From Escherichia coli (GTDB lineage: Bacteria; Pseudomonadota; Gammaproteobacteria; Enterobacterales; Enterobacteriaceae): a DNA stretch of 64,000 bases. Where the stretch lies: the NCBI RefSeq assembly GCF_044324875.1, contig NZ_CP172185.1; one strand, 5' to 3'. A program made the position numbers and the translations under genes. The notes under the pieces were generated by a model. It was not told the origin of the DNA. It saw only the letters and a program-made list of their open reading frames with translations, and searched no databases. Shown here in pieces: positions 881 through 59,596 of the stretch (the first letter of the stretch is position 1; each line of letters starts with the position of its first letter).

Positions 881-3800
881 ATGAATTTTTTATTCTTTTT
901 AGAGCCTTCTATAGAGTTGAATAATCCTCTCTTCAGATATGCTACTTTAAGAAACTCTCTTCTTCCTCAAATTAAAACATTAAGAAGAATGGGGCATGAT
1001 GTAGTTACATTATTGAGTGACTCGGTTGCACAAAAATGTATTGTAGATAATAAAGTAGAACAAATTGGAACAATTGCCGTAATTGATTCTATCGAATGGA
1101 TGAATGGAGAAGGGTATTTTCCTCGATCGCTGCGCCATCAATCTAGGAATTATTTCGATGGGGAACTATTGAATATAAAAAAAATATTGTTGAATTCTAT
1201 TGGGGACCTTTCTTATAAACCAGATGTAATTATAGTTTGGGAAACTCCAGCCTATTACTTAGAAGAGTTATTTCCAGAGGCAAAATGTATCTATCAAATG
1301 CCTGGGGTATTCTCAAGACCTCCATTTGCAAATTTGGTATCATTTGATGATAGATTGCTGGAAAGAAAAACAAAACCGGTAGATTATATTATTGATGATG
1401 GTGAGTTATCAGATTTTGAAAAATTAAGAGAAAAAGAGAATTCTTTTTTTTCCTCCATAAGCCCAACTAAAAAGAAGATAGAGGATATAAGGAAAAAATA
1501 TTCTAAAATAGTATTATTTCCATTGCAAATTGATAATTATTTCATGGTTTCATCGGTTCTGGGCGATGGGAAAACTCAGTTTGATGCATTGATATCTTGT
1601 TTGAAACTTTTACCTGGTGATATAGCATTAATTGTAACCAACTATATTTCTAGGGATATAAAAAGCGCCGTTTTGAGCCATGAGAATATTAAGTATTTAC
1701 GTAATAGATTTCCTAACTTTAAGTATATTGAGGAGTTTGACCTGATTCCTTGTGTTTCTCAATATTTAGTTCGTGAAGTAGATGGTGTAATTTCTATATC
1801 ATCTTCCTTGGGATATCAGGCCAGATATTGGGGCAAACCGCTATTAACTTTAGGCACTAGCCATATTCAAAACTTCGCCACCACAGATAATTTTGATGAG
1901 TTTATAGAGCAAATCTACACATCGATTGCTTACTTTAATGATAGTAATTTAATTGGTGAAATGAAATATAAGAATGTACCTCAGGACTTTTTATCTAGTG
2001 ACGAATATCCACAATGGCTAATAAATGCAATCACAAGTAAATATACGCATTCATGGTGCGATAATATTTCTAATGAGCTTGCCAAAAGAAAGCGAGAAAA
2101 AGCATGCCTTGACTCTCTTGTCCCATACATAAAAAAATATCATCCCCAAGATGATTATTTTTGTAAAGAGCTTTCAGCACAAATACAGCGTTACTCAATA
2201 ATATCTTTTGATATTTTTGATACCCTGCTTATGAGGCCCTTTAGGCATCCTACTGATTTATATGATTTTATAGAACCTCAAGTTAGGTTACTTACAAAAA
2301 TTCCTCATTTAAATTTCAAAAAAGAGCGAAAAAATGCTGAGAAAATTGCATTTGAAAATGCAATTAAGGCAGGGGTTGGTGAAATAACGATTGAGGAAAT
2401 TTATAAGGTTTTAGGAGGTGCTTTAAATATAAGTGCTCAAGTTCAGGAAAATATAATGCAACTTGAAATGCAAACTGAATATGATCTACTTTATCCAAGA
2501 AAAAGTGGATATAGAGCATATCTTGAGGCTAAACAAGCAGGAAAGAAGATAATTTTTATTTCTGATATGTATCTTGGGAAAAGTTTCTTATCCAAAATTC
2601 TGCATAAAAATGGCTATGAAGAATATGATAATTTATATGTATCCTCTGAACATCGAGTAAAAAAACATAGTGGTGAACTTTTTGACTATGTAATTAATGA
2701 TTTAGGCATAGAGCCGCAAACTATATTACACATTGGTGATAATGTCGAAGCTGATGTGAAAAAAGCAAAATCAAGGAATATTAAACCGTTTCATTTAAAG
2801 AAAGCATATGAAGAGTTTACAACATGTTCAGACTATCAAATGCTCTGGAGCAGAGATGAGAATAAACACTCCTTGGATTGGAAAATACTATTGTCAATAG
2901 CAGGCAATAATCTGCATGACAACCCTTATCTCCCATTCCGAAAAGGAACTATCTTTGGTGGATCTCCATTAAAGCTGGGCTATTATGGCCTGGGACCACT
3001 TTTATTAGGTTATGCAAAATGGTTGGTAGAATCAGCAATAAAGGATAAAGTCGAAAGGCTATATTTCCTATCAAGAGATGGAAAGATAATGAAACAAGCT
3101 TATGATATTGTAGCTAAGCTTTATCATAATGCTCCAGAATCTTATTATCTCCTATGTTCAAGAAGAGCTATAAATCTTGCAAAGGTAAAAACTTATAACG
3201 ATATAATTGATTTGGCAAATGTTGATTATGCGAATAATGTTAGTCTCTCACATTTACTTTTCAACAGGTTCGGTTTACAAATTGATACTATCGCAGATGA
3301 AGTATTAGAAAAACATGGGTTTGATAAACAGTCAAAATTAACGTCGAATGATGTTGATAAACTACAAGAACTGTTATTAGATGTGAAGGATGAGGTGTTA
3401 TCTATTGCAGAGAAAGAAAGGTGTTGTTATTTAGAATATCTTAATGAAATGAAGGTGTTCGATAAGGGAGAAATTTCTATCGTTGATATTGGCTATGCGG
3501 GAACAATGCAACAATCATTATATCAATTATCTTCCAATAGCAAAAAAATCGGTGGTTACTACTTAATAACTTTCAGGCCTGCGATTGATCGAGTTGTGAA
3601 TAATTTATTAGCTATAAAATCATATCTCGCTGAATTTATTGACAGGCATGATACATATCATCCTTTCTGCCGATATGTACCCCTTTATGAAACATTATTT
3701 AGTTGTTCTGATACAACATTTATCCGTATGACAAAGGACTTAAGTGGTACGCTCGTTCCTGTGTTTATGGAGAGTACTCCGGTAGAAAATACACGAAAAA

Positions 3801-4294
3801 CAATTGTTGAACATATACAAAAAGGTGCGGTAAATTATATTTCAGAAGTGGTAACCATATTAGGTGAGCATTTTAAACACCTTGATATAGAACCAAATAA
3901 AACACTTCGTGCATTAAATATATTTTTTTCCAATCCTCACCCAAGAGATGCAAAGATATTTTCAGGGGTGGTTTTTGAAGATGCTTATGGTGGAACTCAG
4001 CATAAAACAATTTTACCTGACATCAAAAACATCAATTCTACTTGCGTCTGGGAAACAGGTAGAAAAGTCTTAAGAAATAATCTAGTTAATGAACAGGAAA
4101 ATCAAAAAAATGGCCAAAAGGCTGATAAATATGAAAGTAATACTAAAACAACAAAGCAAAAAATAATATATTCTTTATTAGTAAAAACATTAGCCAAAAG
4201 GAAAAGAGAAAAATTCATCAAAAATCCTGAGCTTTTTTTTTATGATTCCAAAAAGACGATAGTCAAGAGTATTGGTAAATTATATTTATCATGA
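881..4294 (+). CDS. capsule region-2 multidomain protein (1137 aa): N-terminal KpsC/KpsS-like domain, central HAD-like domain, uncharacterised C-terminal half; putative serotype-specific polymerase
   Basis: AT-rich ORF between kpsT and kpsS; N-terminal segment with VLFPLQIDNYF resembles the LQV(Y/F)NDSQ region of KpsS/KpsC; HAD motif I FDIFDTLL and motif IV-like IGDNVEADV. Confidence 0.6.
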   Translation: MNFLFFLEPSIELNNPLFRYATLRNSLLPQIKTLRRMGHDVVTLLSDSVAQKCIVDNKVEQIGTIAVIDSIEWMNGEGYFPRSLRHQSRNYFDGELLNIKKILLNSIGDLSYKPDVIIVWETPAYYLEELFPEAKCIYQMPGVFSRPPFANLVSFDDRLLERKTKPVDYIIDDGELSDFEKLREKENSFFSSISPTKKKIEDIRKKYSKIVLFPLQIDNYFMVSSVLGDGKTQFDALISCLKLLPGDIALIVTNYISRDIKSAVLSHENIKYLRNRFPNFKYIEEFDLIPCVSQYLVREVDGVISISSSLGYQARYWGKPLLTLGTSHIQNFATTDNFDEFIEQIYTSIAYFNDSNLIGEMKYKNVPQDFLSSDEYPQWLINAITSKYTHSWCDNISNELAKRKREKACLDSLVPYIKKYHPQDDYFCKELSAQIQRYSIISFDIFDTLLMRPFRHPTDLYDFIEPQVRLLTKIPHLNFKKERKNAEKIAFENAIKAGVGEITIEEIYKVLGGALNISAQVQENIMQLEMQTEYDLLYPRKSGYRAYLEAKQAGKKIIFISDMYLGKSFLSKILHKNGYEEYDNLYVSSEHRVKKHSGELFDYVINDLGIEPQTILHIGDNVEADVKKAKSRNIKPFHLKKAYEEFTTCSDYQMLWSRDENKHSLDWKILLSIAGNNLHDNPYLPFRKGTIFGGSPLKLGYYGLGPLLLGYAKWLVESAIKDKVERLYFLSRDGKIMKQAYDIVAKLYHNAPESYYLLCSRRAINLAKVKTYNDIIDLANVDYANNVSLSHLLFNRFGLQIDTIADEVLEKHGFDKQSKLTSNDVDKLQELLLDVKDEVLSIAEKERCCYLEYLNEMKVFDKGEISIVDIGYAGTMQQSLYQLSSNSKKIGGYYLITFRPAIDRVVNNLLAIKSYLAEFIDRHDTYHPFCRYVPLYETLFSCSDTTFIRMTKDLSGTLVPVFMESTPVENTRKTIVEHIQKGAVNYISEVVTILGEHFKHLDIEPNKTLRALNIFFSNPHPRDAKIFSGVVFEDAYGGTQHKTILPDIKNINSTCVWETGRKVLRNNLVNEQENQKNGQKADKYESNTKTTKQKIIYSLLVKTLAKRKREKFIKNPELFFYDSKKTIVKSIGKLYLS

Positions 4295-4483
4295 ATATTA
4301 AGGGGGCGCATATGTATCCGAATTATATATATCATGATTATTTTTTTTAGTTGTTAGAAATAAATTCTTAGCATGGATGCTGTTATTCTTTTTTATATAA
4401 TAAACTTTAGATAATATGAATTGTTTATTGTCAAAAATAAGTATATTTTATTGGGTTAATATATATTTGTATGGTGCATCGGA

Positions 4484-5641
4484 ATGATTGAGTTTATTTG
4501 CTCTGAATTAAATAAAAACCCATATTTAGAAATAATTCCCAATCACAAGTCAAAAATGGTTTATATTGCTTTTTCATCGGTAGATATACCGAGAGGGGCA
4601 TTTATGTTTTGGAAAATAATCAATAGAATGGATGCCTCCAAGATTTTTATTAATGATGAACATAATGGGTGGTATGTTCATGGAATTCCTGGTGTAGGTG
4701 ATGTTAACAAAAGCATTGATTTTTTATTCAATATTTTAAATATGCTTAAAGCAGAAGAGGTAATATTGATAGGCCCCTCAATGGGGGGGTATGGTGCCAT
4801 GTTATATGGTGCTATTCTTAAAATGAAGATGCCATGGATACAATTTCGATGCCTTTCTTTTGGTGGTGAGTTTCATCTGTATATAAAGGAAGCAAGAAGT
4901 GGCAAGCTATCTAAAAAACCACGTAATCCATATTATGCTGATATAAGATGTTTAGTATCCTCATCTGAATTGGATATAGTTCAGGTTTATGGTGACGATG
5001 ATATCAATGATATTTATCAAGCCCATCTTGTTCATGGAATTAAAAATATTGATCTAATTTCTGTAAGAAATTCCCCGCATGCGGTTTCGACGTATTTAGG
5101 AAAGAAAATTGATTTAACAAAAGCAATTAAAAATTATGAATCCTATGGAAAGTTTGAGGTTGAATCTGCATCTAATGTCAGTCAATTTAAAGAGCATGGC
5201 GCTCTATTATATTTTGGTCATTTAATGATGCTTGATAATAATGCTAAAGAGGCAATTAAAAAATTAGAAAAAGCAATAACTATCATACCAGACCATGCTC
5301 TGACGCAGCATAAACTTGGACTTGCATTACTCATGCTGAAAAAAGAAAAAGAAGCACTTTTACACCAAGAATTAGCTATAAATCTAAATCCTGATCTGGC
5401 TCATGCACATTTTCATATTGCCATGCTATCAGAGATGAATGGCGATATTAAAAAGGCTGAGTATCATTACAAAGAGTGTATTAGGTCTGATGAACGTCAT
5501 ATTCGAGCATTGATTTCATTATCATTGTTATATGAAAAAGTAAAGGAGTATGAACTGGCTTTGGATTGTTCATATAAGGTTTTAGCGTATTCTGAAGGTA
5601 ATAAAATGGCCTTGGATATAGTACGAAGAATTACAAAGTAA
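4484..5641 (+). CDS. capsule region-2 protein (385 aa) with alpha/beta-hydrolase-like GxSxG motif and C-terminal TPR-like repeats; function unknown
   Basis: AT-rich ORF co-oriented with region-2 gene 1; GPSMGGYG motif; repeated helical A/L/K-rich C-terminal blocks typical of TPR. Confidence 0.55.
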   Translation: MIEFICSELNKNPYLEIIPNHKSKMVYIAFSSVDIPRGAFMFWKIINRMDASKIFINDEHNGWYVHGIPGVGDVNKSIDFLFNILNMLKAEEVILIGPSMGGYGAMLYGAILKMKMPWIQFRCLSFGGEFHLYIKEARSGKLSKKPRNPYYADIRCLVSSSELDIVQVYGDDDINDIYQAHLVHGIKNIDLISVRNSPHAVSTYLGKKIDLTKAIKNYESYGKFEVESASNVSQFKEHGALLYFGHLMMLDNNAKEAIKKLEKAITIIPDHALTQHKLGLALLMLKKEKEALLHQELAINLNPDLAHAHFHIAMLSEMNGDIKKAEYHYKECIRSDERHIRALISLSLLYEKVKEYELALDCSYKVLAYSEGNKMALDIVRRITK

Positions 5642-5731: not shown

Positions 5732-6982
5732 TTAATGGTTTTTAATTTGAGTAGTGTGCATTGTTTGTGTAATGAAAAGATTATTACCATTATTAATATT
5801 ATATTTAAAACACCCATAAAAAACCCAATTAACCTGTGTCTTCACCAATAAATACCCACGAAACTTCTTAAACAGTTTCATATTCGGTTTAAAATCGGCC
5901 TGCCAGAACTGGTGCAAATGCCCTTGATACGTCAAGCCCTTGATGTCGTACAGGGCATTGCCCATCACTTTGAGTGGTTTGTTATGAATCAGTGCAGAGA
6001 TCCCCGCCGTACTGTTAATCGTCACCACCGCTTTAGCATGGCGTAATAGTTCCGGCATCGGGAGATCGTGCACATAAATGACGCGCTCACCTAAGCCATA
6101 TTCCTTACTCAACCGCTTAATTAATGGTCGATAGAGTCTGTGACCACGATCCATCGGATGATGTTTGATCACCAAATAACTTTCTTTCGGCGCTTTACGT
6201 GAAAATGAGTACATGACTTCATTAATATAGTCACGCACATCGTTATAATTGCTGTGGTTACGAATCTGGCTATCGTTATATACCTGCAAAACGGCAAGAT
6301 AATAACGCTGGTCCAACTCGTTCATTAACCTCGGTAATACCTTACGCTGTGTTACCTTGTAAAGTTGCTTGCGCCAGTATGCACGAACCCAGCAACGAGC
6401 TTCATACCACGGGGAAAATGATTTATGGTGGCGGTAGCGAGGGAACTCATGACGGTAATGCCAGCCCATCAGGTAATACCACATCGCATGACCTATACGT
6501 TTCATCGTTGAAGGTTTTAAGTTCTCAACGTGCGGCGTAGGCATATCTGGTAACTTACGATAAAAATCCGGATCGCGCGGTAGCGATGAATATGCGTTCA
6601 CTCCGCCTTCTTCAACGGTAATAAATTGCGGGCGTAAATATCCTTCCTCAAATGCCAGAAAGCGGATCCCTTTCGACTTTGCCCAGCGTTTTGCTTCTTT
6701 GTGCAATGGGCGGCAGTCACCAAAGCAGAGGATGGTATCAAAGTCATATTGCCGGTGGAGATCCCGTAACCATCCGGGGAACTCTTTCGGCGTTTGGTAG
6801 TAAGCCAGGTATTGTCGATGGCGGCAGTAAAAACGATCCCCACCGTTGAATACAACATTCACAGCGTTACGTCCTAATGACTCTAACCATTCGGCGACGT
6901 CATTGAAAAAAGGTCCCATCGGCCCCTGCAATAGCAGATATTTTTTACCGGATAATAAAACGGTTAGTGCATTACCTTGCAT
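5732..6982 (-). CDS. kpsS: KpsS, capsule biosynthesis beta-Kdo transferase (region 1)
   Basis: 416-aa ORF MQGNALTVLLSGKKYLLLQGPMGPFF...; conserved YLAVLQVYNDSQ motif; last gene of the kpsFEDUCS block. Confidence 0.9.
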   Translation of the reverse strand: MQGNALTVLLSGKKYLLLQGPMGPFFNDVAEWLESLGRNAVNVVFNGGDRFYCRHRQYLAYYQTPKEFPGWLRDLHRQYDFDTILCFGDCRPLHKEAKRWAKSKGIRFLAFEEGYLRPQFITVEEGGVNAYSSLPRDPDFYRKLPDMPTPHVENLKPSTMKRIGHAMWYYLMGWHYRHEFPRYRHHKSFSPWYEARCWVRAYWRKQLYKVTQRKVLPRLMNELDQRYYLAVLQVYNDSQIRNHSNYNDVRDYINEVMYSFSRKAPKESYLVIKHHPMDRGHRLYRPLIKRLSKEYGLGERVIYVHDLPMPELLRHAKAVVTINSTAGISALIHNKPLKVMGNALYDIKGLTYQGHLHQFWQADFKPNMKLFKKFRGYLLVKTQVNWVFYGCFKYNINNGNNLFITQTMHTTQIKNH

Positions 6983-7016
6983 AAATAATTTACGTAATAG
7001 TCAACTATGAAATTGT

Positions 7017-9044
7017 TTAGCCAAATCTGACCTTGCAGAACATAATTAATTTGCGGTAATAGCGTATGACTCGCCCCGCTTTTTTTCGGGTAATAAACAT
7101 CGGCTTGCGCGGCGTCTTGATTAAATATTCCGCAGCTTCTTCTACCGTAATAGGTTGTAGCCGTGTTGGGTGGATATAGGTTGGATAAACAATCAACGCC
7201 TGATAGATCAAATCTGCTAACGTTAATTTTTGCTCGCGGCGCGGGCAGTGATGTTCATCAACGGTTAAACCCCAACCGGCATAGAAGGGCAGGCCGTAAC
7301 AATGTACGTGCTTGCCATGTAATAACGCTTCAAACCCGGACAATGATGTCATGGTGTGCACTTCATCTGCGCGCTGAATGCATTGAATAATATCGGCGTC
7401 CAGTGCCTGATAATCAGCGAGTTCAGCAGTCAGTTCTGCCGGAATATCGCCCTTGCGATTCCCCACCAGTACATCCGGGTGCGGTTTATAAACAATGTAG
7501 GCGTGCGGATTGCGCTCGCGTACTGTGCGTAATAACTCAAGGTTGCTCTTAATCGAGACAGTGCCTGTTTTAATAGAGGCATCGTCCTCTACCTGACCCG
7601 GCACCAGGATAACTTTTTTATCTTTGGCTTCGGCTGGTAGAGAGAAATCGGCTCCCAGGTTGTACTTACTCAGTTTGCTTTCAACCAGTCGCTGGCGTAA
7701 TTTTTCAGCTCGCATCTGCTGCGCCAGCGTTAACTGGCTGTGATTAAGCAGGACTTCCAGGTCGCTGGGGCGCGTGGCGTCATAGTAGATCCCGCGTTTA
7801 TCCAGTACCAACGATAGCGGCGGCAGCAGGTCAGAGCCAAGTCCGGATGAACGCAGAAAACCATCTTCCATTCGCCATAACGGCAGTGATTTTTGTTGCG
7901 CTTCGGCTAGCCATTGCTGTTCTCCCTTTACACCCCATACCACGCAAGCCGTCGCCGCAGTACAACGGCGTGAATAACTCAGTCTGTTTGTTGCGGTACG
8001 CAAGAAAGGTTTCAGGATTGCCGACTTCCACAGCGTTAAGCCTGGCGACCATAAATAGCCATTACGCTGTTGCTGATGGTTGCGCTGTAATTGCAGCCAT
8101 TGCAGTACGGTAAACAGATCGCTTGCGGCCCCCGTGAGCGGGTCGATATAGCGACAGTAACGCAGGTATGCAGCGGCAAAAAGTTCTTCCAGCGTGGCAG
8201 AACCGCGTCGGGCAGATAACAAAGCGGACTGCGGATGGCGATCGTCGGTTAAGCCCCAGCCTGCATACCAGGGCTGGCCGAAACATGTTACTGGTTTTCC
8301 TGCCAGCAAGGCTTCAAAGCCGTATTGGGATGTCACGACGTAAACCCGGGAAACGTGTCGCAACAGCGACTGCGGGCTGACATTCTCGGCAATCAAACGT
8401 ACTCGTTGCGTGGCGCGCAGATCAGCGAAATAACCTGTTTTCTTTCCTTCCAGGACATCCGGATGCACCTTCACCCAAATTTCGGCTTGAGGATTTTCCG
8501 CCATCGCGGCTTCCAGCATGGCAGCAAACTCATGCGGGCCAGCATTGCCATACGTCACTGACATATCATTAAATGTCTGATCGACAACCAGAACGATGTC
8601 TGAACGTTCTGACTCATCAGCCACAAACGCAGGTGCTAGGTTATATTTCGACAAATCCCCGGTCACGATGGTGTGCATCGCTTCTCTGGCCAGGCTTATC
8701 AGAGCTGTATTTCCGGCTTTATCCTGTACCAGTTTCTCCAGTGCTGAAGGCTTGCTGGCATCGTAGTAAATGCCACAATCATCCACCACCAGAGAAAGCG
8801 GCGGCTCGCCATTGACGCCAAGATCCAGCGAACGCACAAATCCATCTTCCAGACGAATGACGGGTTTTCCCGCTGCTTTGGCGATGGCGACTGGTTTCGC
8901 CGCGCTGGGACGATGTCCCCACACGGCGATAGCATCAACTTCTTGCGGAACAGGGCGCAGCAGAGAAAGTTTCTGGCACGGTTGCGCCAGAAATTTCTCC
9001 AGATGCGGAATACGCCAGATGCCAGGCGAGTAAATGCCAATCAT
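7017..9044 (-). CDS. kpsC: KpsC, capsule biosynthesis dual-module beta-Kdo transferase
   Basis: 675-aa ORF with two repeated modules ([14 protein letters not shown] / [14 protein letters not shown]); 4-bp overlap with kpsU. Confidence 0.92.
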
Positions 9045-52476: not shown

Positions 52477-53301
52477 TGTGGCAATCAGCAACGTGCAGAT
52501 GGCCGCCGTGACCATAATGATCACCGCAATCACCGCCGCGTTATTCCACTCGCCGTACTCCATGGCGGTGGCCTGCATCAGCCGCGCCAGCGAGTAGGTG
52601 TTGCGTGGCCCGGCCACCGAGAAGAAGGCGAAGTCGCCCAGCGCGCCGATAAATACCAGAATCAGCGTCACCTGCACGGCGGGCAGCGTCAGCGGCACCA
52701 CCACGCCGGTAAAACTGCGCCAGCGGCTGGCACCGAGATTGCTGGCGGCGTCCAGCACGTCGTTACGGATGGCGTTGACTGCGCCGCCGACGAGGATCAG
52801 GGCGAAGGGCAGGTTTTTCCAGATTTGCAGGATAACCACGCCCCAGCCGAAGTCATCGTTCTGCATCCGCAGCGGCTCGCTGATAATCCCCAGCGCCAGC
52901 AGCAGTTCGTTGATAATGCCGTGATAAGCGACGATATTGACGAACAGAAACGCCGCCACCAGACCGGGGATAAACATCGGCGCACGCAGCACCGCGATAA
53001 TGCCCTCTTTATAGGCCATCGGTTTACGCAGCCACAGCGCCAGCGGATAGGCGAAAATCACCGAGCCGAACGACCCCAGCAGTGACACTTTCACTGAGTA
53101 GAACAGGGCGCTTTGCAACACTTCGTCCTGCAACATATTGCGCCAGTATTCCAGCGAGAAATTGCTGTCGCCTTCGATGTTGAACCAGCCCAGGCTCTGG
53201 ACGATCACCACATAAAACGTCGATCCCATCAGTAGTAGGATCGTGCCCAGCCCGCTGAGCATCAGCAGCCAGGCGACCGCATCATTGCGCCAGTTTTTCA
53301 T
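52435..53301 (-). CDS. ABC transporter permease (first)
   Basis: 288-aa polytopic ORF with permease EAA-like loop region. Confidence 0.85.
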   Translation of the reverse strand: MKNWRNDAVAWLLMLSGLGTILLLMGSTFYVVIVQSLGWFNIEGDSNFSLEYWRNMLQDEVLQSALFYSVKVSLLGSFGSVIFAYPLALWLRKPMAYKEGIIAVLRAPMFIPGLVAAFLFVNIVAYHGIINELLLALGIISEPLRMQNDDFGWGVVILQIWKNLPFALILVGGAVNAIRNDVLDAASNLGASRWRSFTGVVVPLTLPAVQVTLILVFIGALGDFAFFSVAGPRNTYSLARLMQATAMEYGEWNNAAVIAVIIMVTAAICTLLIATLITPFATRKGEVK

Positions 53302-54365
53302 GATACCGGCTCCAGAAAATGGATGGCGTTTTCCGCCAGACGGAAGCAGGCACTCTCGCCGGGGGCGACGGGCGGCTTTTTAATTAGATGTAAGCGGACC
53401 GATAACCCGCTGTCGTTGTGGCCCCAGGCTTCGGTGAGGTTGCCCATAAAGGCCATTTTGTCGAGCGTCAGGGAGAAGTGGTTGTTGCCTGCCTGAGGCT
53501 GGCTGACATACTGCGCATCTTCCGGTCGCCAGCAGATATAGCAGTGCTCTGTGCGTGGCGGCTGTACGGAATGCACATAAAACTCGCCGAGGGCACAGCG
53601 TACCCGGTAATAGCCCGGCTGCTCTGAGGGCGTGACCTGCGCGGTGTCGATATTGGCCGCGCCGATAAAGTCGGCCACAAAGCGGTTGGCCGGACGGTAG
53701 TAAATCTCTTCCGGTTTGCCTATTTGCTCAACATTACCGGCGTTCAGCACCACAATTTTATCCGACATCGCCAGCGCTTCCGCCTGGTCGTGTGTGACGT
53801 AGATCGAGGTGAGCTGATACTGCCGCTGGAGTTCCTTGATTTCAAAACGCACGCTTTCGCGCAGCTTGGCATCAAGGTTGGAGAGCGGTTCGTCGAACAG
53901 GATCACGTCCGGGCGGGTGATCATCGCCCGCGCCAGCGCCACGCGCTGCTGCTGGCCGCCGGAGAGCTGGGCGGGCATTTTCAGGCGCTGGCTCTCCAGC
54001 CCCACCTGCTTCAGCGCCTCCGCCAGCCGGGCCTGCTGTTCACTGATAGCGACTTTTTTCTGCTTCAGGCCGAAGCAGATGTTGTGTGCCACGTTGAGGT
54101 GCGGAAACAGCGCATAGGACTGGAAACACATGGCGGTATTGCGCTTTTCTGGCGGCAGGGCGTTGACCGTTTTATCGCCAATCAGAATGCGTCCGCTGTC
54201 CGGCTGGTGAAAACCGCCGATCATTTTCAGCAGGGTGGTTTTACCGCAGCCGCTCGGCCCAAGCAGGGTCACGAACTCCCCCTCTTCGGCGCAGAACGAG
54301 ATTTCCCTGGCGGCATAGAATTCGCCGAAGGTTTTGGTCACCTGTTCCAGAACCAGTTTTGACAT
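53298..54365 (-). CDS. ABC transporter ATP-binding protein (PotA/MalK-like)
   Basis: Walker [10 protein letters not shown], signature [14 protein letters not shown], Walker [12 protein letters not shown]. Confidence 0.9.
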
Positions 54366-55426: not shown

Positions 55427-56539
55427 ATGAACGCCCACTCTGAACGCCTTGAACTACGTGGTTCGCAGCGCCTGCTGCTGGAACTGATCCGTCTCCACGC
55501 CCCGGTGACGCGGGCTGAACTGGCACGGCTGTCGGGACTGACGGCGGGGGCGATCACCCAACAGTGCCGAGAGCTGATGTTCTCCGGCCTGGTGGTGGAA
55601 GGGGAGCGCAATACCGGGCAGCGCGGCCAGCCGTCGCTGCCGTTGCGCCTTAACCCCGGCGGCGGTTGTGCTATCGGGTTGTCGTTCAGTCCCGGTTTTA
55701 TCGATATGACGGTGGTCGATCTCAGTGGTCGCCAGCTGCTGTCGCTTTGCGAAGCACATCAGGAGAATCAGCCACTGGAGGCCTCTCTCGCGCAGATCAA
55801 AACCTTGGTGGAGAAAATGCTGAAAAAGCGCCAGCTCCAGCACGCACGTATTCTCGGCATTGGCTATGCAGTGCCCGGATTTCTGAAAGCGGATGGTCGC
55901 AAGCGCCACAGCGTACCGTGGCTGGAGAGCTGGCGTGAGGTAGATCTCCAGCAGGCGTTTGCCGACAACCTGCCGTGGCCGACGTGGGTGGAAAATAATG
56001 CCAACGCCTCGGCGGTAGGTGAACTGTACAGCGGCAAATGGAATGCGTACAGCGATCTAACCTTTATCGACCTTGGCTACGGTATCGGCGCGGGTATTAT
56101 CTCCGGGAATAAAATGCTACGCGGCGGGTTCTGCAATGCCGGTGAAGTCGGGATGGCGTTTCCATCCGGTACACCGCGCCCGTCGTATAAGGATTTGCTT
56201 GCCACACTGGAGCGTGAAGGATTCAGTGAAACTAAGCTACCGGAGCTGATAGCCGGGCAGCACCCACTGCTGGAAAGCTGGTTTGAACGCTGTCGTGGCC
56301 AGGTGGAGCAGACGCTCTTCAGCTGTGTGCAGTGGGTAGACCCGCAAATCATCGTACTCGGTGGCGCGATGCCGAAACCGATTATCAGTCGTCTGGTGCA
56401 GGAACTGAATCAACTGATGGAAGCCTGCCTCGATCCCAACCGCCCCAGAGTGAAGTTAGCTGCCTCTTCGATGGGAGCACAGAGTGCGTCATGCGGCGCG
56501 GCGATGCTCCCGTTGTATAAGGTGATTAATAATGGATAA
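55427..56539 (+). CDS. ROK-family (NagC/Mlc-like) transcriptional regulator
   Basis: 370-aa ORF with N-terminal HTH and ROK sugar-kinase-like fold motifs. Confidence 0.8.
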   Translation: MNAHSERLELRGSQRLLLELIRLHAPVTRAELARLSGLTAGAITQQCRELMFSGLVVEGERNTGQRGQPSLPLRLNPGGGCAIGLSFSPGFIDMTVVDLSGRQLLSLCEAHQENQPLEASLAQIKTLVEKMLKKRQLQHARILGIGYAVPGFLKADGRKRHSVPWLESWREVDLQQAFADNLPWPTWVENNANASAVGELYSGKWNAYSDLTFIDLGYGIGAGIISGNKMLRGGFCNAGEVGMAFPSGTPRPSYKDLLATLEREGFSETKLPELIAGQHPLLESWFERCRGQVEQTLFSCVQWVDPQIIVLGGAMPKPIISRLVQELNQLMEACLDPNRPRVKLAASSMGAQSASCGAAMLPLYKVINNG

Positions 56540-58036
56540 GAAGTTATGTGATTGTTGCTTCTGAAAGTGATATTTTATGTTGTTAAAATGTAAAGTAATA
56601 ATACAATGAGCTATCCATGATGGGGTTCTGTAAATAAACAAAACACTCTCTTCAATTCTGCTCACCTTCGGTATTTGTGTATCATCACTGGCTACTGATA
56701 AAAACAGAACCGTCAGTTTTCCACGATGTGAAGGGCAGGAATCATCGGCTGTTGCAGCCAGCGTCAAACGGGACTATCTCCAGAAACAGGTGCTTCACTG
56801 GAAAGATGACTAGGTGATCTTCAGTCAGCAGCATCCTGTTGTCTGGGTGAATCTTCGTGAGCTGGTAAGTAAAGGTGATAATTTAGTCACAGTGCATCTC
56901 ACCGCCCGGGGGAAGAAAGCCGATATTCAGTATCGGGTGCGCATTGACTGTAAGAACGAAAACGCTATCTGGCAGCGCCAGAGATGAACGTATGGAGATA
57001 ATCACAGAGTATGAACAAACGGACTCTACATGTTCATTATGACTAAAAAACGCTGTTTTATTTTACGTTGCTGTCATAACGTGTTTATCTCAATTTTCGG
57101 GAACATGTTCTTAGCGGTTAGACTGGCCCCCTGAATCTCCTGCGTTTGAAGGACAGTAACAGGTTAAGTGATAACAGATGTATGAAAATATAGAGATACA
57201 TCCAAGGAAGAGCCACTTTTGCGCCGTTCGTGACAGTTTTGTCATGTCCTTGCTCCGGCCTGGTTTATGTTCATAAGTCCTTCTTCACCAGTATCTTTGT
57301 AAACCTTCACCCAGTGCCAGATAATGGTTTCATTTGATATATTAAACTGTGTAGTGGCCTAGCGCATGGTAAGTTCTTCACTCAAACCTTCAGGACAACT
57401 GTCAGTCGAAACTCAGGAGAGCCGCGGTCATTTTGCCATGTAATACCATCAATACCGTGGAGTTGCCAGCCCTTGACCCAGCATCGCTCTGATGTTTCTT
57501 CAACACCAAAACGTTCAGCGGTACGACGTGTACCATCGTGTCCGGCAATATAATGATTAACTACAGCTTATTCGGTTTAGAGAAAATATTTTGGCTTTGC
57601 CATAAAAACTAACCTTAATCAGTTGGATGTCCAACTTTTGGAGGGAGAGTCCAACGATGGTACAGGATTTATTCATGTTAATTTTTCACAAACTCCTTTA
57701 TTCGTGTGATGTTAATCACAAAATACCAAAGAGAACGTTGAAAAAATAATGATACATTGTAAAAGATATATTAATTAATTTTTCATAATTTTATTATATA
57801 TGCTGCATGTCAATTATTTATATACCAAAAACCGAACAAAAATATTTATTATAGGTATTATGAAATAACCTTTCCATATTGTTTATTTTAATGCAATCAG
57901 CACAGATTACTTCAAAAATATAATTAGATGCATGAAAAGGGAGAAACAATATATTTTATTGTTTAAGATATTTTGTTCAACATGTATGCTGAGAGATAAA
58001 CTTATCGATACTTAAAAAATCCGAAAAGGAGGAATA

Positions 58037-59596
58037 ATGATAACAAAAAGAGAAAGACGTTTCCTGAGAACAGTAGAATGGCTTGGCAATGCACTTCCTC
58101 ATCCCGTCATCCTGTTCATAATATTAACAATTTCCTTAATTGTAGTTTCGATGATTGGACAATATTTTAATATTAGCGCCCCAGACCCAAGACCACCTGG
58201 AGCTAAAGGCCGGAATGATGATGGTATTATTTATATTGTAAGTTTACTGGATGCAGATGGAGTTCGTAAAATTCTTTCGAATCTGGTTACTAATTTTACG
58301 GGATTTGCACCACTGGGCACTGTTCTGGTTTCTCTTCTTGGTGTTGGTATTGCAGAACGGTCCGGGTTAATTTCAGCAACCCTTCGTCTTATTGTGACAA
58401 AAGCCCCTGCAAAAGTAACAACTATAGCTGTTGTCTTTGCCGGTATCATGTCCAACATGGCTTCAGAACTTGGCTATGTCGTTTTAATACCACTTTCGGC
58501 AATACTTTTTCATTCTCTGGGAAGACATCCCTTGGCCGGGCTTGCTGCTGCTTTTGCGGGAGTCTCGGGTGGCTATTCAGCAAATTTAGTATTAGGTACA
58601 ATCGATCCGCTCTTGTCAGGAATCACCCAGCAAGCAGCGCAAATTGTATCATCTGATTATATTGTAGGGGCTGAATCCAACTGGTATTTTATGTTTGTCA
58701 GTACATTTTTTATAACACTCATGGGGTACCTGATAACAGAAAAAATAGTTGAACCACAGTTAGGGAAATACAAGGGTGGAGGGTTCAATCAGGATGAACA
58801 GTCAATTCGTAATTCATCTGATGTTACAGCAGTTGAGAAAAAAGCGTTAATGCTGTCCTTTTTATCTGTACTTCTACTATCTGTTATTGTTGCCATTCTG
58901 GTTATTCCTGAAGATGGAATCTTACGTAATCAACAAACAGGATTAATCAGCAATTCTCCATTTCTTAAATCAATAGTGGCTTTCATTTTCATATTCTTTT
59001 CATTAGCTGGTGTAGTATATGGATATACAGCGGGAACAATAAAAAATAGCAAAGATATTGTTGATGCCATGACTCATTCAATGAGTACATTAGGACTTTA
59101 TCTGGTCATTATATTTTTTGCCTCTCAGTTTGTAGCTTTGTTTAGCTGGACAAATATTGGTCAGGTTATTGCGGTTAAAGGCGGGAGTTTTCTGAATAGT
59201 CTTGATTTGCCAGATTCCGTAATATTTATTGGATTTATATTGATTTGTGCTGTCATTAATTTAATGATTGGGTCCGCATCTGCTCAATGGGCAGTAACAG
59301 CACCAATTTTTGTTCCTATGTTAATGATGGCAGGATATGCCCCTGAAGTAATACAGGCTGCTTATAGAATTGGAGATTCAGTAACAAACATTATTACTCC
59401 AATGATGAGTTATTTTGGGCTTGTTATGGCTATTGTACTTAAATACAAAAAGGATGCCGGTGTTGGGACTTTGATATCAATGATGCTTCCATACTCCATA
59501 GTTTTCCTCGTCGGGTGGTCTGTATTCTTTGTTATATGGGTCTTTGTACTGAACTTACCCGTTGGCCCCGGGGCATCGACCTATTATCTCCCATAA
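58037..59596 (+). CDS. AbgT-family transporter
   Basis: 519-aa AT-rich polytopic ORF; N-terminus RFLRTVEWLGNALPHPVILFIIL typical of AbgT family. Confidence 0.85.
   Translation: MITKRERRFLRTVEWLGNALPHPVILFIILTISLIVVSMIGQYFNISAPDPRPPGAKGRNDDGIIYIVSLLDADGVRKILSNLVTNFTGFAPLGTVLVSLLGVGIAERSGLISATLRLIVTKAPAKVTTIAVVFAGIMSNMASELGYVVLIPLSAILFHSLGRHPLAGLAAAFAGVSGGYSANLVLGTIDPLLSGITQQAAQIVSSDYIVGAESNWYFMFVSTFFITLMGYLITEKIVEPQLGKYKGGGFNQDEQSIRNSSDVTAVEKKALMLSFLSVLLLSVIVAILVIPEDGILRNQQTGLISNSPFLKSIVAFIFIFFSLAGVVYGYTAGTIKNSKDIVDAMTHSMSTLGLYLVIIFFASQFVALFSWTNIGQVIAVKGGSFLNSLDLPDSVIFIGFILICAVINLMIGSASAQWAVTAPIFVPMLMMAGYAPEVIQAAYRIGDSVTNIITPMMSYFGLVMAIVLKYKKDAGVGTLISMMLPYSIVFLVGWSVFFVIWVFVLNLPVGPGASTYYLP

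Follow-up and report, generated by a model that had tools for sequence, protein, structure and literature searches.

The window analysed here is a stretch of 64 kb of Escherichia coli DNA, and the locus under study is a spacer of 1497 bp within it (56540-58036). Its left border is the gene of a ROK-family regulator (55427-56539) and its right border the gene of an AbgT-family transporter (58037-59596). Along this part of the window the ROK cluster has a GC content of ~58%, which drops to ~43% within the spacer and to less than 30% in front of the AbgT gene. Homology breakpoints were located at 56532/33, 57204/05, 57235/36 and 57653/54, and five pieces can be told apart. The first is a module on the plus strand (56533-57118), which consists of a pseudogene related to YebF, its upstream region and ~130 bp on its 3' side, and which was found by BLAST to be common to other E. 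coli islands. It is followed by an IS2-like relic of 86 bp (57119-57204, plus strand), by a 31-bp flank of this relic (57205-57235, no strand assigned) and by the 5' stump of an IS3-family insertion sequence on the minus strand (57236-57653). The last piece (57654-58036, plus strand) is the AT-rich DNA upstream of the AbgT gene, with about 23-30% GC, which belongs to the AbgT/SPATE block and lies outside the decayed open reading frames. A search of positions 56400-58200 at a permissive E-value matched no Rfam family and returned two chance-level scores only (a snoRNA and an lncRNA model, E ~0.5). Promoter-like matches numbered 9, with 5.7 expected by shuffling, and terminator-like matches 2, with 1.2 expected; as these counts are near the shuffled expectation, they carry no information except for two conserved promoter-like sites that precede the pseudogene. 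The spacer conceals no further gene, no RNA family and no regulatory system, and its content is the pseudogene of a YebF paralog together with two IS relics.

The pseudogene covers 56634-56987 on the plus strand, with 117 codons and a TGA, and was identified by Pfam, PDB and allele alignment as well as by the PGAP label in near-identical genomes. Its frame translates into INKTLSSILLTFGICVSSLATDKNRTVSFPRCEGQESSAVAASVKRDYLQKQVLHWKDD, a stop, VIFSQQHPVVWVNLRELVSKGDNLVTVHLTARGKKADIQYRVRIDCKNENAIWQRQR and the final stop. The inner stop is a TAG at 56811-56813, in frame between a stretch ending in YLQKQVLHWKDD and one which starts with VIFSQQHPVVWVNLREL and runs to QRQR at the end; it is the in-frame stop that the earlier note had described as splitting a small open reading frame. 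If Gln is put in place of the TAG, the product reaches 89.8 bits against the Pfam family PF13995 (YebF, cutoff 27) over 86 of the 89 profile positions, and it matches E. coli YebF (PDB 2LQV) with E=4.2e-25 and 45 of 95 residues identical, much more than chance would give. The TAG of the window copy aligns to a Gln in K-12 YebF. YebF has two conserved cysteines which form a disulfide pair, and both are aligned with those of 2LQV ('fprcegq'/'FPKCEDL' and 'ridckne'/'SVDCKAG'). By inspection, the N-terminus reads (M/I)NKTLSSILLTFGICVSSLA followed by TDK, with a basic residue, a hydrophobic run and a small-x-small end, and the alignment of mature YebF to the window product starts at residue 22.

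The comparison with E. coli K-12 YebF reveals likeness in length (117 codons, 118 in K-12), in the order of a signal-peptide-like N-terminus and a domain of ~95 residues, in sequence (47% identity over 95 residues) and in the motif FP(K/R)CE...ASVKRDY...RGK.ADI.Y.V..DCK, which is kept. In contrast to K-12 YebF, the paralog is carried horizontally on genomic islands and does not lie at the core yebF locus, and the window copy is dead, having no ATG and a TAG at codon 60. After repair in silico, the window allele stays under both NCBIfam equivalog cutoffs, with 106.8 against 110 for NF041240 (YebF_not_Cmi) and 116.3 against 147 for NF010224; it is therefore classed as a YebF-family paralog pseudogene and not as core yebF. 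Our literature search found neither a described YebF paralog nor a pairing of AbgT with a SPATE. Small in size, YebF is reported to reach the medium by export and serves as a secretion carrier (Zhang et al. 2006, cited in PMC12137417). The PGAP annotation 'YebF family protein, internal stop' is already present in RefSeq, as is, in some genomes, an annotation of the IS3 remnant. The YebF-like pseudogene and the IS relics are ordinary junction debris.

Intact relatives of the paralog exist. A search of ~5.8 billion proteins delivered relatives of 117 aa at 79-84% amino acid identity, with the N-terminus MNK(T/A/I)LS... and with the sequence WKDDQ. These intact paralogs pass the NF041240 cutoff of 110 with 115-116.5 bits and fail NF010224. 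The upstream regions of the intact paralogs (P0001-P0003; among them WP_045146775.1 of strain PK-F-10122 and WP_311820160.1 of strain E7-1N7) are homologous to that of the window copy. Intact alleles are commoner in draft assemblies, and the collection has 436 indexed blocks with P0003. They are usually found in an integrase-bearing island, beside a divergent gene for an outer membrane beta-barrel protein (OMP) of 249 aa (PF13505), at 5969-6718 of the PK-F-10122 locus and at 6936-7685 of eight other loci (L012-L019); this gene is absent from the window. In PK-F-10122, genes for a DolP-like lipoprotein and for a thioredoxin-domain protein are also adjacent to the paralog. Judging from the gene neighbourhood, a functional link between the YebF paralog and the OMP gene is possible. 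A functional pairing of YebF with AbgT was also considered, given that fragments of an AbgT gene lie beside the intact paralog in E7-1N7. It was rejected: the orientation is not the same, an AbgT gene is missing next to most intact paralogs, and in the window IS junctions lie between the two.

An alignment of the DNA of four alleles (window, SCU-115, PK-F-10122 and E7-1N7) allowed us to place two lesions in the window copy. At 56634-56636 the start codon ATG, present in the three other alleles, is changed to ATA, which occurs in the window allele alone among the four. At codon 60 (56811-56813) a CAG for Gln, kept in both intact alleles and in K-12 YebF, is changed to TAG, and this nonsense codon is common to the window allele and the SCU-115 allele (~95% identity). 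As the TAG is shared with SCU-115 and the ATA is private to this block, the nonsense mutation is older than the loss of the start. The SCU-115 allele carries an extra 1-nt deletion in codon 24. Nei-Gojobori counts were used to measure selection and give a dN/dS of 0.15 for the two intact alleles; for the two TAG alleles (window and SCU-115) Sd is 2 and Nd is 14. On this base of only 16 substitutions, the probability of two or fewer synonymous changes is 1e-5 at omega=0.15 and 0.25 at omega=1. The intact alleles are under purifying selection, and the changes between the TAG alleles fit neutral drift since inactivation.

The window copy lacks the start codon and the unbroken frame that a functional gene would have, and from its sequence it would be non-functional, as would the IS relics. 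Continued translation of the YebF-like gene would demand a start at the ATA, or at an upstream ATG with frameshifting, and in addition readthrough of the TAG. In favour of it, a coding sequence for a putative signal peptide is recognisable, and two overlapping sigma-70-like promoter matches lie at 56561-56607 on the plus strand (CTGAAA-17-TAAAAT with TG, and TTGTTA-16-TACAAT, both by consensus only), in a putative promoter region that is conserved in the SCU-115 and PK-F-10122 alleles. However, two independent rare translational events would be required, both ATGs further upstream (56617 and 56620) lie out of frame and run into a stop 6 codons on, substitutions follow a neutral pattern, and the sister allele of SCU-115 is additionally broken by its deletion at codon 24, so that we assign to such expression a practically negligible probability. 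A related question concerns the residual open reading frame of 57 aa (56814-56987, plus strand), which covers the C-terminal half of the YebF fold and is present as CDS in some RefSeq records (WP_000577803.1, WP_001354053.1). That it is a genuine small cytoplasmic protein, as annotated, might be suggested by its uninterrupted frame, by the GTG start directly after the TAG, and by the PGAP calls in PKF11 and SCU-115. Yet the same DNA is a pseudogene according to PGAP in most genomes, and this half of the gene differs from SCU-115 by 6 non-synonymous and 1 synonymous changes. The product would have no signal peptide and would lack the first Cys of the conserved pair, and so small a single-domain fold would probably not be stable when halved. 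We regard a genuine protein as highly improbable; most likely the 57-aa frame is not a functional gene, and the 57-aa 'YebF family protein' of some RefSeq genomes is the fragment of a pseudogene, which is of use for annotation.

A further reading goes beyond decay and takes the paralog lineage as an accessory factor that is mobile and secreted and has a role other than that of core YebF; its fixed inactivation in the poultry-associated block could then be due to selection and not to drift alone. The presence of intact copies in hundreds of E. coli assemblies, the dN/dS of 0.15 and the repeatedly neighbouring genes for an OMP beta-barrel, a DolP-like lipoprotein, autotransporters and AbgT are suggestive of an accessory factor. 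Selection for loss finds no support within the window itself, and the reading as a whole seems quite unlikely to us.

The 86-bp relic at 57119-57204 was compared with the PGAP-annotated IS2 of E7-1N7 and consists of the left end and the last ~64 bp of the right end of such an element, so that both IS2 ends are represented. Its left end TAGACTGGCCCCCTGAATCTCC is identical to IS2 in 22 of 22 positions (23/23 in the BLAST match). The right end (...GGTTAAGTGATAACAGATGTATGAAAATATAGAGATACATCCA), which includes C-terminal codons of orfB, is identical in 41 of 49 positions (~84%), and this divergence from the IS2 of E7-1N7 suggests a relative of IS2 and not IS2 itself. Transposase genes are absent from the relic, in which 86 bp of ~1.33 kb remain. 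Insertion of IS2 makes a 5-bp target duplication; none is found at 57119-57204, where the flanks are GCGGT and AGGAA. The left flank is common to the copies in SCU-115 and NRZ14408, and the right flank, the 31 bp at 57205-57235, is also present in NRZ14408, at a locus near sitCD/iutA. These flanks bear on the question whether the 86 bp are an active miniature element (MITE), mobilised in trans by full-length IS2. Terminal regions of IS2 type are kept on both sides, IS2 copies are available in these genomes (one of them at 56607/56608 in PK8275-type strains), and similar 86-bp pieces occur at no fewer than three genomic places. Against mobility, the left flank is the same in all three copies examined and the right flank in two of them, which points to one ancestral insertion that was passed on along with its surroundings; the missing target duplication and a right end only ~84% identical to IS2 speak against it as well. 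Transposition of the 86 bp is accordingly judged very improbable, and with the same flanks in its copies the piece is an inherited relic, not an active miniature element.

The minus-strand piece starts at 57653 with a terminal repeat (TGGACT, TGGACTCTCCCTCCAAAAGTTGGACA) and comprises a leader, the ATG of OrfA (57603-57601) and OrfA codons 1-123 down to 57236. The nearest intact copy is an element of 1447 bp on the Citrobacter braakii plasmid NZ_CP077406 (WP_142478931.1), which has the ends TGGACT...AGTCCA and a 3-bp TAA duplication. From the TGGACT to codon 123 the stump is colinear with this element and shares its double HTH_28 domain; it has the 5'-TG of the terminal inverted repeat at the left end only. 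In contrast to the intact element, the stump is devoid of the site of the programmed -1 frameshift, of the DDE (rve) domain of OrfB and of the right end, and it carries three stops and two single-base deletions. By DNA alignment these are TAA at codon 9 (57579-57577), TAA at codon 12 (57570-57568), a 1-nt deletion between 57387 and 57386, TAG at codon 82 (57361-57359) and a further 1-nt deletion between 57267 and 57266. Homology ends at 57236, and no OrfB sequence was found beyond this point. The peptide IAGHDGTRRTAERFGVEETSERCWVKGWQLHGIDG is encoded at ~57549-57445 on the minus strand; together with its frameshifted continuation, the stump is 76.6% identical to annotated IS3-family transposases over 107 residues (tblastn, E=2e-50), and a two-frame reconstruction contains HTH_28 twice (36 bits, cutoff 25). 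Relative to the intact CDS, tblastn places the start of the match at codon 14 and the DNA alignment places it at codon 1. The piece is a remnant of an IS3-family element and no functional IS. The element may belong to the IS150 subgroup, to judge by its size, its duplication of 3 bp and an OrfA with a double HTH. PGAP labels the stump 'IS3 family transposase, incomplete' in some genomes, and as the terminal repeat and the start codon are retained, the PGAP label 'missing N-terminus' for this remnant is imprecise.

For the minus-strand fragment, the earlier note had proposed the N-terminus of an HTH transposase or regulator, of which the transposase is borne out as IS3-family OrfA and the regulator can be dropped. 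Its claim of decay in the DNA that separates the ROK regulator from the AT-rich AbgT/autotransporter segment holds, given the lesions and the clear homologs of both pieces. It had named a lack of homologs for either fragment as evidence to the contrary; intact homologs were found for both, which removes this objection. The extent given there (56700-57560) contains features described here and is too narrow at both sides, with the pseudogene starting at 56634 and the IS stump reaching to 57653. The account of degraded open reading frames was right in respect of decay, and it made no mention of the name YebF, the loss of the start to ATA, the 86-bp IS2-like relic or the retained IS end (57653-57601). 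The present analysis adds the loss of the start, the order in age of the two lesions, the finding of neutral drift, the IS2 relic of 86 bp and the true limits of the IS3-family stump. The importance of these additions is small and lies in annotation and in island archaeology.

Local BLAST matched window positions 56534-57193 to SCU-115 at 89.7% and positions 56534-57037 to PK-F-10122 at 82.6%. At base level, the left junction lies at 56532/56533, with ...AATAAT on the ROK side and GGATAAGAAGTTATGTGA following. This is one codon before the stop of the ROK gene, and the last ROK codon (GGA) and the TAA are supplied by the yebF module. A truncation of ROK at this junction was considered and rejected: the alignment reaches to ~4 positions from the end of the ROK-kinase model and the loss is negligible, so the regulator looks essentially full length. 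At least 8 of the 28 genomes with this block have a full IS2 adjoining position 56608 instead of the ROK cluster. In PK8275 the yebF pseudogene borders on an IS3-family/IS2 element (positions 3671-5000 of that locus), to which the window itself contains, at 47347-48676, a sequence of 98.7% identity. Recombination between such copies could be the source of the alternative left junction at 56608.

The pieces can be arranged in a tentative history. A horizontally carried paralog of YebF, itself a small Sec-exported protein, would have been killed first by a C to T nonsense mutation (Gln60, CAG to TAG); the G to A change of the start codon (ATG to ATA) would have come next, in this lineage, with neutral drift since. 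The IS2-like element would have lost its interior by deletion, with 86 bp left from its two ends, and the IS3-family element would have been inserted upstream of the AbgT block. A later deletion, with one end within orfA and the other at the flank of the IS2 relic, would then have left 418 bp of the IS and joined the yebF-bearing module to the AbgT/SPATE module, whose fusion point we place at 57235/57236. The order of these rearrangements is derived from a handful of comparator genomes and should be taken as provisional. Taken together, we are strongly inclined to regard the spacer as non-functional junction debris of a mosaic island, with a dead YebF paralog, an IS2 relic and an IS3-family stump.

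The distribution was surveyed in 5426 complete E. coli genomes. The paralog was present, in any allele, in 51 of them: 27 carry it at >=99% identity (the allele group of the window, with ATA and TAG), 22 at ~95% identity (the SCU-115 allele group) and two at 81-87% identity (intact alleles). The whole spacer, and likewise the AbgT region, was found in 28 of the 5426, mostly chicken isolates. In these 28 genomes the pseudogene, the IS relics, the AbgT gene and the Hbp/Tsh-like SPATE form one block, which is conserved at >=99%. The left neighbour is variable (ROK cluster or IS2) and the right side is constant, which links the pseudogene with the AbgT/SPATE block rather than with the ROK cluster. 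The island that holds the block is not the same in all genomes. In strain VTB97420v the block is situated at tRNA-Phe, adjoining yqgA; in ECCNB12-2 it is found past setC/yicL, at a distance of ~40 kb, where the island of that genome has its far end. The yebF pseudogene is thus usable as a lineage marker of the AbgT/SPATE block in poultry-associated E. coli.

The context of the window as a whole was compared with the same two reference genomes. The BREX, Ag43 and pheV context of VTB97420v was considered for the entire window and rejected, with the BLAST match to that genome running from 48.7 kb on only. ECCNB12-2 matches the window at 17-48 kb. Outside the spacer, too, the window is a mosaic island. 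By homology to ECCNB12-2, positions 17000-48000 comprise genes of CP4 type (CbtA/YeeU toxin-antitoxin, antirestriction, RadC), a PTS/transketolase cluster, IS1414 copies, a YadA-like adhesin, a YaiO/glycosyltransferase cluster and a TRAP transporter. Neither VTB97420v nor ECCNB12-2 matched the initial ~15 kb of the window, and ARAGORN detected no tRNA in the 64 kb.

Some observations were made on the genes next to the spacer. The AbgT-family transporter gene (58037-59596) has ~38% GC and barely reaches the cutoff of the TIGR00819 'antimetabolite efflux' subfamily (756.6 against 753.55). Among complete E. coli genomes it occurs in 28 only, in addition to a fragmented copy at 87% adjoining the intact YebF paralog in E7-1N7. 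The SPATE autotransporter at 59908-63732 is Hbp/Tsh-like (PDB 1WXR, 1263 bits) and has 1274 aa in the window and in PK8275 and 1291 aa in VTB97420v; the length difference of 51 nt was placed at window positions 62693-62832, where no megablast alignment was obtained between the versions. On the other side of the spacer, the gene for the ATP-binding protein of an ABC transporter (53298-54365, minus strand) is an intact open reading frame of 355 aa in the window and is frameshifted according to PGAP in VTB97420v and PKF11, which match the region at >99% elsewhere.
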